Virus record (IMG/VR): IMGVR_UViG_2534681674_000020
Span: 1-36,460 of that record
Source: a virus
Lineage: Duplodnaviria > Heunggongvirae > Uroviricota > Caudoviricetes
Reading direction: 5' to 3' (one strand)
DNA: 36,460 bases
Shown here: positions 25,406 to 25,731 of the stretch, piece by piece
Layout: every line of letters begins with the position of its first letter
How positions within the stretch are numbered: position 1 is the stretch's first letter
Made by a program: the position numbers and the translations under genes
The notes under the pieces: generated by a model
What the model was told of the DNA's origin: nothing
Databases searched by the model: none
Seen by the model: the letters and a program-made list of their open reading frames with translations, nothing else

Positions 25406-25731
25406 AAACATTTCGCTGGAAAGTGAAGCCGGATATGGAGGTGAACTCGCAGCCATCGGTGCGTGAAGTGCGTTTTGGTGACGGGTATTCGCAGCGTATG
25501 GCGGCGGGGCTGAATGCTGACCTGAAAACATACCGTGTGACGCTTTCCGTGACCCGGGAGGAGGCCCGACATCTGGAGGCATTCCTGGCAGAGCACGGTG
25601 GCTGGAAGGCGTTTCTGTGGACACCGCCTTATGCCTAGCGGCAGATAAAGGTGACCTGTGCCGCCTGGTCATCACGGGTTCGCATGCTGCGGGTTGAATT
25701 CAGTGCCGAGTTTAAGCAGGTGGTGAACTGA
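25402..25731 (+). pseudogene. M: Tail tip protein gpM interrupted by an in-frame TAG at 25636-25638
   Basis: ORF 25402..25638 is collinear with the lambda M N-terminus. The same frame continues after the TAG as RQIKVTCAAWSSRVRMLRVEFSAEFKQVVN, matching the lambda M C-terminus. The TAG sits where lambda has Trp (TGG). Confidence 0.8.

Follow-up and report, generated by a model that had tools for sequence, protein, structure and literature searches.

Gene M is essential for tail assembly in phage λ, as classical genetics established, and the same body of work relied on ambers in late genes, A and M among them. In the λ virion, all 109 residues of gpM are ordered, forming a β-sandwich with a flanking helix, and six gpM copies make a ring at the junction between tail tube and gpL/gpJ tip (PMC10721106). 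EHEC typically harbors defective lambdoid prophages that bear frameshifts, deletions, and IS insertions, and the losses are often complemented in trans by co-resident prophages (PMC2669165). In lacI, according to the account of Coulondre et al. (1978) given in PMC12606429, amber hotspots are G:C>A:T changes that affect the second C of CCAGG; they occur roughly ten times too often and are absent from strains without cytosine methylation.

How does the present locus compare? The window, by which we mean the whole stretch of 36,460 nucleotides analyzed here, is a lambdoid prophage whose late operon keeps the λ order from Nu1 through J; it also has lom, stf, and cargo genes (Table 1). Its M gene lies between H (22850-25405) and L (from 25731), matching the λ order H-M-L-K-I-J, and its stop codon overlaps the L start (TGATG) as in λ. 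With W79 restored, the product is 83% identical to λ gpM and matches Pfam family PF05939 (Phage_min_tail) over the complete model (1-108 of 108) with 132.9 bits, the cut-off being 39; window M also matches PDB entry 8iyk, chain M (“Tail tip protein M”), with E = 6.5e-58. Unlike λ gpM, the window gene is cut at codon 79, which leaves 78 of 109 residues and removes the last two β-strands; this 78-aa product still covers positions 1-76 of the 108-position Pfam model, with 102.8 bits. Family score and operon position thus place the gene in the M family, but an uninterrupted ORF of ~109 codons that spans the entire β-sandwich is missing, and, judged from its sequence, it is a pseudogene of this family, a non-functional member.

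Table 1. Coordinates (window numbering) of the interrupted genes, the two amber codons, and the associated elements.
Feature	Position	Strand	Remarks
Esterase gene, nanS-p-like, SASA family	6734-8697	+	-1 frameshift near 7712
IS3-family element, IS629/IS1203-like	10498-11808	+	Rfam ALIL pseudoknot at 10834-10950; ORFs of 108 and 296 aa
Terminase large subunit gene A	12830-14758	+	split by an amber codon into fragments of 375 and 264 aa; Pfam GpA_ATPase, GpA_nuclease
First in-frame amber, Q376*	13955-13957	+	CAG in relatives; T13955 was ancestrally C; ancestral Dcm site CCAGG at 13954-13958
λ M homolog (distal tail protein)	25402-25731	+	now a pseudogene; 78 of 109 codons translatable
Ancestral Dcm site in M	25634-25638		CCTGG, now CCTAG; G25637 lay opposite the presumably methylated inner C of the bottom-strand CCAGG
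In-frame amber, W79*	25636-25638	+	TAG; mutated base A25637, ancestrally G; TGG in relatives
λ L homolog	25731-26430	+	+1 frameshift; G run at 26027-26032 has six G, five in relatives

A sequence-only reading of this DNA had reported that M contains an in-frame TAG where λ has TGG, that a single G-to-A change accounts for it, and that the frame continues to resemble λ M beyond the stop. The three observations hold at 25636-25638, codon 79. Read through the TAG from 25402, the frame comprises 109 codons (MKTF...TPPYA*RQIKVTCAAWSSRVRMLRVEFSAEFKQVVN*; the N-terminal part of the translation is MKTFRWKVKPDMEV), whereas λ M reads ...TPPYEWRQIKVTCAKWSSRVSMLRVEFSAEFEQVVN* across the same stretch; 27 of the 30 residues downstream of the amber codon match λ M. 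In a four-way DNA alignment, codon 79 is TGG in λ, the Stx2a phage Stx2_95, and E. coli O55:H7 CB9615, and G25637>A is the sole difference between window M and the intact CB9615 gene (329 of 330 bases are equal). Because only one base in 330 is mismatched, the change is, on the alignment, real and recent, made in a single step. The same reading had described the position as a conserved Trp; it is conserved as an aromatic position, but clean full-length homologs have W or Y at residue 79, and C once, so an invariant Trp had to be given up. Among the full-length M homologs, none ends at codon 79, and no intact relative terminates M there.

Is the TAG genuine? An error of sequencing or assembly, with G as the true base, would account for a single-base difference from otherwise identical M alleles and would sit well with the numerous draft contigs that break precisely at the polymorphic base. 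However, the TAG is present in at least five independently made assemblies, a closed genome included, and the site lies outside any homopolymer. The window is 100% identical to contig AEZJ02000009.1 of GCA_000194215.2 across 20,237 bases, and the identical M TAG recurs in GCA_003015285.1, GCA_005393035.1, GCA_001607265.1, and the complete genome E105 (GCF_017348835.2), in which NCBI PGAP annotates M as a pseudogene with an “internal stop”. Where resequencing had been proposed as a check, independent assemblies already read TAG at codon 79, not TGG; because they agree, a sequencing error is effectively refuted and scarcely credible, and the TAG is a genuine inherited mutation.

How far it has spread is harder to read from database counts. 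With a few mismatches allowed, the M 71-mer has 621 occurrences, distributed over 421 complete genomes of E. coli, and the exact TAG version only one, in E105; none of the 40 matching phage records has the TAG version. Genomes that carry this M type do so in a median of two copies and a maximum of 13. We counted as true TAG carriers only those loci that have the 237-base gene. The 78-aa product itself appears in 202 blocks and on 199 contigs of the collection, a count inflated by contigs that end at the polymorphic base (many, such as L007-L012, merely stop there) and hence unreliable as a measure of how widespread the amber is. As a side observation, databases have acquired spurious M proteins of 78 aa, labeled “partial”, from the many draft contigs that end at the equivalent of window position 25636/25637; presumably there is a branch in the assembly graph at this base, as co-resident prophages have the downstream M-L sequence in common.

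What would the amber codon do to gpM? The final 31 of 109 residues are missing from the truncated product. In the AlphaFold model of an intact, 99%-identical M homolog (mean pLDDT 68.7, ~80 in the C-terminal third), the long β-strands 82-93 and 98-106 both come after codon 79. Because these C-terminal strands are lost, the truncated gpM, on this model, would be unable to assemble into the hexameric distal-tail ring between the tube and the L/J tip. The amber codon is also 93 bases ahead of the M/L overlap, and translational coupling into L would probably be weaker; a scan for promoters and terminators around M and L, as restart or polarity signals, gave nothing above chance. We regard it as nearly certain that W79* is a real pseudogenization of M within prophage decay.

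The M amber has a counterpart in the terminase large subunit gene A. The sequence-only reading had drawn attention to two amber codons in essential morphogenesis genes of one prophage, and comparison with relatives bears this out: A carries CAG>TAG at 13955, in addition to the change in M. For these two codons, that reading had offered chance decay, propagation in an amber-suppressing host, and a deliberately crippled phage. The remainder of the prophage speaks for the first. Compared with intact relatives, the window has no fewer than five inactivating lesions: besides the ambers in A and M, there are a frameshift in L, the truncation of R and loss of Rz at an IS element, and a frameshift in the esterase gene; the remaining late genes are equal in length to their intact counterparts. 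The L frameshift is located 390 bases downstream of the M amber and splits the Pfam Phage_tail_L match over two frames (model positions 3-73 and 77-206). The IS element truncates the lysozyme gene R and replaces ~2.3 kb, comprising the 3′ end of R and Rz, relative to the intact O103 ML775 prophage. With at least five lesions, several of which are not of a suppressible kind, chance decay is the sole reading of the three that finds support.

The order in which these lesions arose can be followed in part. The prophage of GCA_003015285.1 differs from the window at only ~12 places between 6276 and ~26000, and it also has both ambers and the L frameshift; by contrast, its esterase gene is intact (645 aa), and R and Rz are intact as well, the same IS lying inverted just upstream of Nu1. 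Because GCA_003015285.1 has only the first three, these are ancestral and the esterase frameshift and the R-Rz deletion came later; the altered placement of the IS suggests a putative IS-mediated rearrangement or deletion in the window’s strain. The L frameshift is common to GCA_003015285.1 and GCA_005393035.1, and its 71-mer is found in one of 1,832 complete genomes, the unrelated closed genome 2010C-3142, a recurrence as expected for slippage in the G run. The best complete-genome matches to the window prophage reach 95-98% identity over 22 kb. The lineage with these lesions is well represented in draft genomes and SRA runs, since the collection lists the 264-aa C-terminal fragment of A for 67 contigs, spread over 98 blocks.

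The resemblance to the defective lambdoid prophages of EHEC/EPEC, exemplified by the Sp prophages of O157 Sakai (Asadulghani et al., 2009; PMC2669165), is close: both combine a λ-like late operon with point lesions, IS629-type insertions, and effector or moron cargo. The window prophage is nevertheless distinct from the Sakai Sp prophages, and its lesion set is common to a lineage known mainly from drafts. With five lesions, an IS, and intact sodC and NleC-like genes, the window is, by its gene content, a defective lambdoid prophage of EHEC/EPEC type, and for such a decaying prophage a tail gene cut short by a nonsense codon is of a known kind, a routine event. Taken alone it has little significance, given that the NCBI pipeline already flags the identical M mutation elsewhere as an internal stop. 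The shared lesions (both ambers and the L frameshift) do offer clean markers with which to trace this prophage lineage among EHEC/EPEC-like strains.

If the prophage is simply decaying, why are both of its nonsense codons amber? Natural coliforms with amber suppressors have been reported, and a carrier lineage with a suppressor tRNA could still translate A and M, making this a natural conditional-lethal phage. That both codons are amber is what such a history would leave, but the other lesions do not fit it: an amber conditional-lethal phage should have only suppressible nonsense lesions, and the +1 frameshift in L, the IS-linked loss of R/Rz, and the esterase frameshift are beyond rescue. Furthermore, all strains found with both ambers also carry the L frameshift wherever L is covered; one amber replaces Gln and the other Trp; the window has no tRNA gene, ARAGORN and Rfam having detected none within it; and amber is the expected stop type anyway. 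A suppressor lineage is, on this evidence, very improbable.

Recoding, or programmed read-through, would likewise let TAG be read as sense in late genes. Both TAGs do fall in late genes, and the one in A takes the place of Gln, the usual meaning of a reassigned TAG in recoded phages. Recoded phages, however, have many in-frame TAGs and their own suppressor tRNA; here there are just two in-frame TAGs in 6,010 late-gene codons, and no suppressor tRNA is encoded by the phage in the window. The TAG in M replaces Trp/Tyr rather than Gln, hundreds of near-identical relatives have TGG or CAG at these positions, and the E. coli host uses the standard code, all of which makes a sense reading of TAG highly improbable.

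The third possibility is human design, that is, a laboratory or engineered phage with ambers introduced deliberately, as in λ cloning vectors. The attraction is historical: classical λ work used ambers in A and M, and the window shares with those late-gene mutants, grown on supE/supF hosts, ambers in the same two essential morphogenesis genes. Unlike the classical mutants, the window ambers are natural and stand alongside unsuppressible lesions. The sequence is also not that of λ, window M differing from λ M at many silent sites; cargo of EHEC/EPEC type (sodC and an NleC-like effector gene) is present; and natural isolates of cattle, human, and fish origin have the lesions, which recur across numerous assemblies and SRA runs. 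The suggestion of a deliberately crippled phage fails on the finding of the same lesions in many natural isolates of differing sources, and the probability that remains for an engineered origin is negligible. The amber pair is explicable without a suppressor host or human design.

The preferred reading is decay, and under decay the identity of the stops would follow from how they are made. Of the 532 transitions that create a stop in the late genes (6,010 codons), 377 (71%) yield TAG; because of this bias, two ambers are unremarkable, the chance of amber at both of two transition-derived stops being about one half. The sequence context points to a more specific source. Relative to the nearest intact alleles, both mutations are G:C>A:T, and each falls at the inner C of an ancestral CCWGG: in M, the ancestral context atgCCTGGcgg has become CCTAG; in A, the ancestral context is atcaCCAGGtac / gatcaCCAGGtac, in which CCAGG has become CTAGG (top-strand C13955>T). 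To our knowledge, dcm is near-universal in E. coli. The M amber would have arisen by deamination of 5-methylcytosine on the bottom strand of CCTGG, giving top-strand G>A and CCTAG, and the A amber would be the mirror case, with deamination on the top strand converting CCAGG to CTAGG. Deamination at a Dcm target can, as we infer from the codons it alters, yield only TAG, never TAA or TGA; both stops could be amber without a suppressor host because this route makes no other stop.

How strong is the case for this route? Of the 535 late-gene positions at which a G:C>A:T change creates a stop, 24 (4.5%) are Dcm targets, and all 24 give TAG; the probability that two random stop-creating transitions would both fall at such targets is ~0.002, for a test framed after the sites had been seen and with n = 2. 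Among ~70 further SNPs that separate the window from near-identical relatives, there is no other change at a Dcm target beyond the A amber; this null is uninformative and adds no support, given how rare the targets are and that recombination patches account for most of the differences. The likeness to the lacI hotspots (Coulondre, Miller, Farabaugh, and Gilbert, 1978) is direct: in both, the inner C of CCWGG undergoes a transition to TAG, the A amber being of the exact lacI type and the M amber its bottom-strand counterpart. The difference is that the window ambers are fixed, natural prophage variants and the lacI ones selected laboratory mutants; here, methylation is presumed from sequence. 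Spontaneous deamination at Dcm sites is the likely mutational route of the two ambers. The explanation as a whole, namely a decaying prophage in which W79* is a nonsense mutation that most likely came about by the Dcm-site route, is in our judgment very probably right. On this explanation, both stops are textbook products of the Dcm hotspot, and the prophage is a checkable case of host cytosine methylation shaping the order of prophage gene death.

If these sites are hotspots, the same changes should recur, and both the M and the A change do reappear in other strains. The A mutation is present in one of 1,666 complete genomes, that of O111:NM strain 2010C-3053, where it is annotated as an “internal stop”. 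When the prophage of this strain is compared with its counterpart in a sister O111:H8 strain, 5 of 16,782 bases are different, the C>T in A among them, and the A allele of 2010C-3053 differs from window A at eight other sites. The M amber of E105 is on another M haplotype, which reads AGC GCG 67-70 bases downstream where the window reads AGT GCC; both haplotypes are common with TGG, and A and L are intact in E105. A single origin for all occurrences of each amber is not favored, given the different haplotypes in E105 and O111:NM. These four-gamete patterns would reflect either independent mutation or very short conversion tracts (<462 bases in M, <369 bases in A), and we consider independent mutation the likelier of the two.

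Recurrence can also be read as a sign of selection, with the ambers fixed because inactivation of the prophage protects the host while the cargo is kept. The pattern of damage is compatible with such domestication: the cargo ORFs (sodC, lom, and the NleC-like effector gene) are intact and the lysis, packaging, and tail genes are damaged, identical sites are struck in other strains, and the lesion-bearing prophage is widespread, as gauged by the 264-aa A fragment. A mutational hotspot, however, explains the recurrence equally well, and the lesions are rare in complete genomes (M, 1/421; A, 1/1,666; L, 1/1,832). We consider domestication unlikely; it may in any case add to the decay explanation rather than exclude it. 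Decay is assumed here to be neutral, selection for inactivation being indistinguishable from neutral decay.

Returning to decay by way of Dcm sites, the recurrences raise a broader, more tentative idea: that in-frame Dcm sites are predictable weak points of E. coli prophages, whose late-gene nonsense mutations would be dominated by recurrent ambers at a few CCWGG targets (24 here). This generalization is possible, though we hold it to be somewhat doubtful. If true, the same codons would be struck independently in unrelated strains, prophages would lose their functions in a non-random order, set in part by host methylation, and the window ambers, together with those of E105 and O111:NM 2010C-3053, would be its first examples.

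Several features of the window outside the interrupted genes deserve mention. A Cu/Zn superoxide dismutase gene, sodC (27953-28480, - strand), lies between tail genes I and J and appears to be intact cargo (a moron). Downstream of the tail-fiber genes, an intact 328-aa ORF (34854-35840) matches the full Pfam model Peptidase_M85, the family of NleC-type type III effectors that degrade NF-κB p65. Between the holin and lysozyme genes there is a 186-aa ORF (9619-10179) with no Pfam match, the homolog of which in O103 ML775 is annotated as “hypothetical protein”. Upstream of the esterase gene (5538-6734), the tRNA genes ileZ-argN-argO, present in the related E105 and O111 prophages, are absent, and an iraM-like ORF (6133-6459, - strand) is in their place. 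Finally, the nin region contains a hok/sok-type toxin-antitoxin locus (767-1091), in which Rfam recognizes sok at 767-941 and a Hok-like ORF of 70 aa occupies 879-1091.
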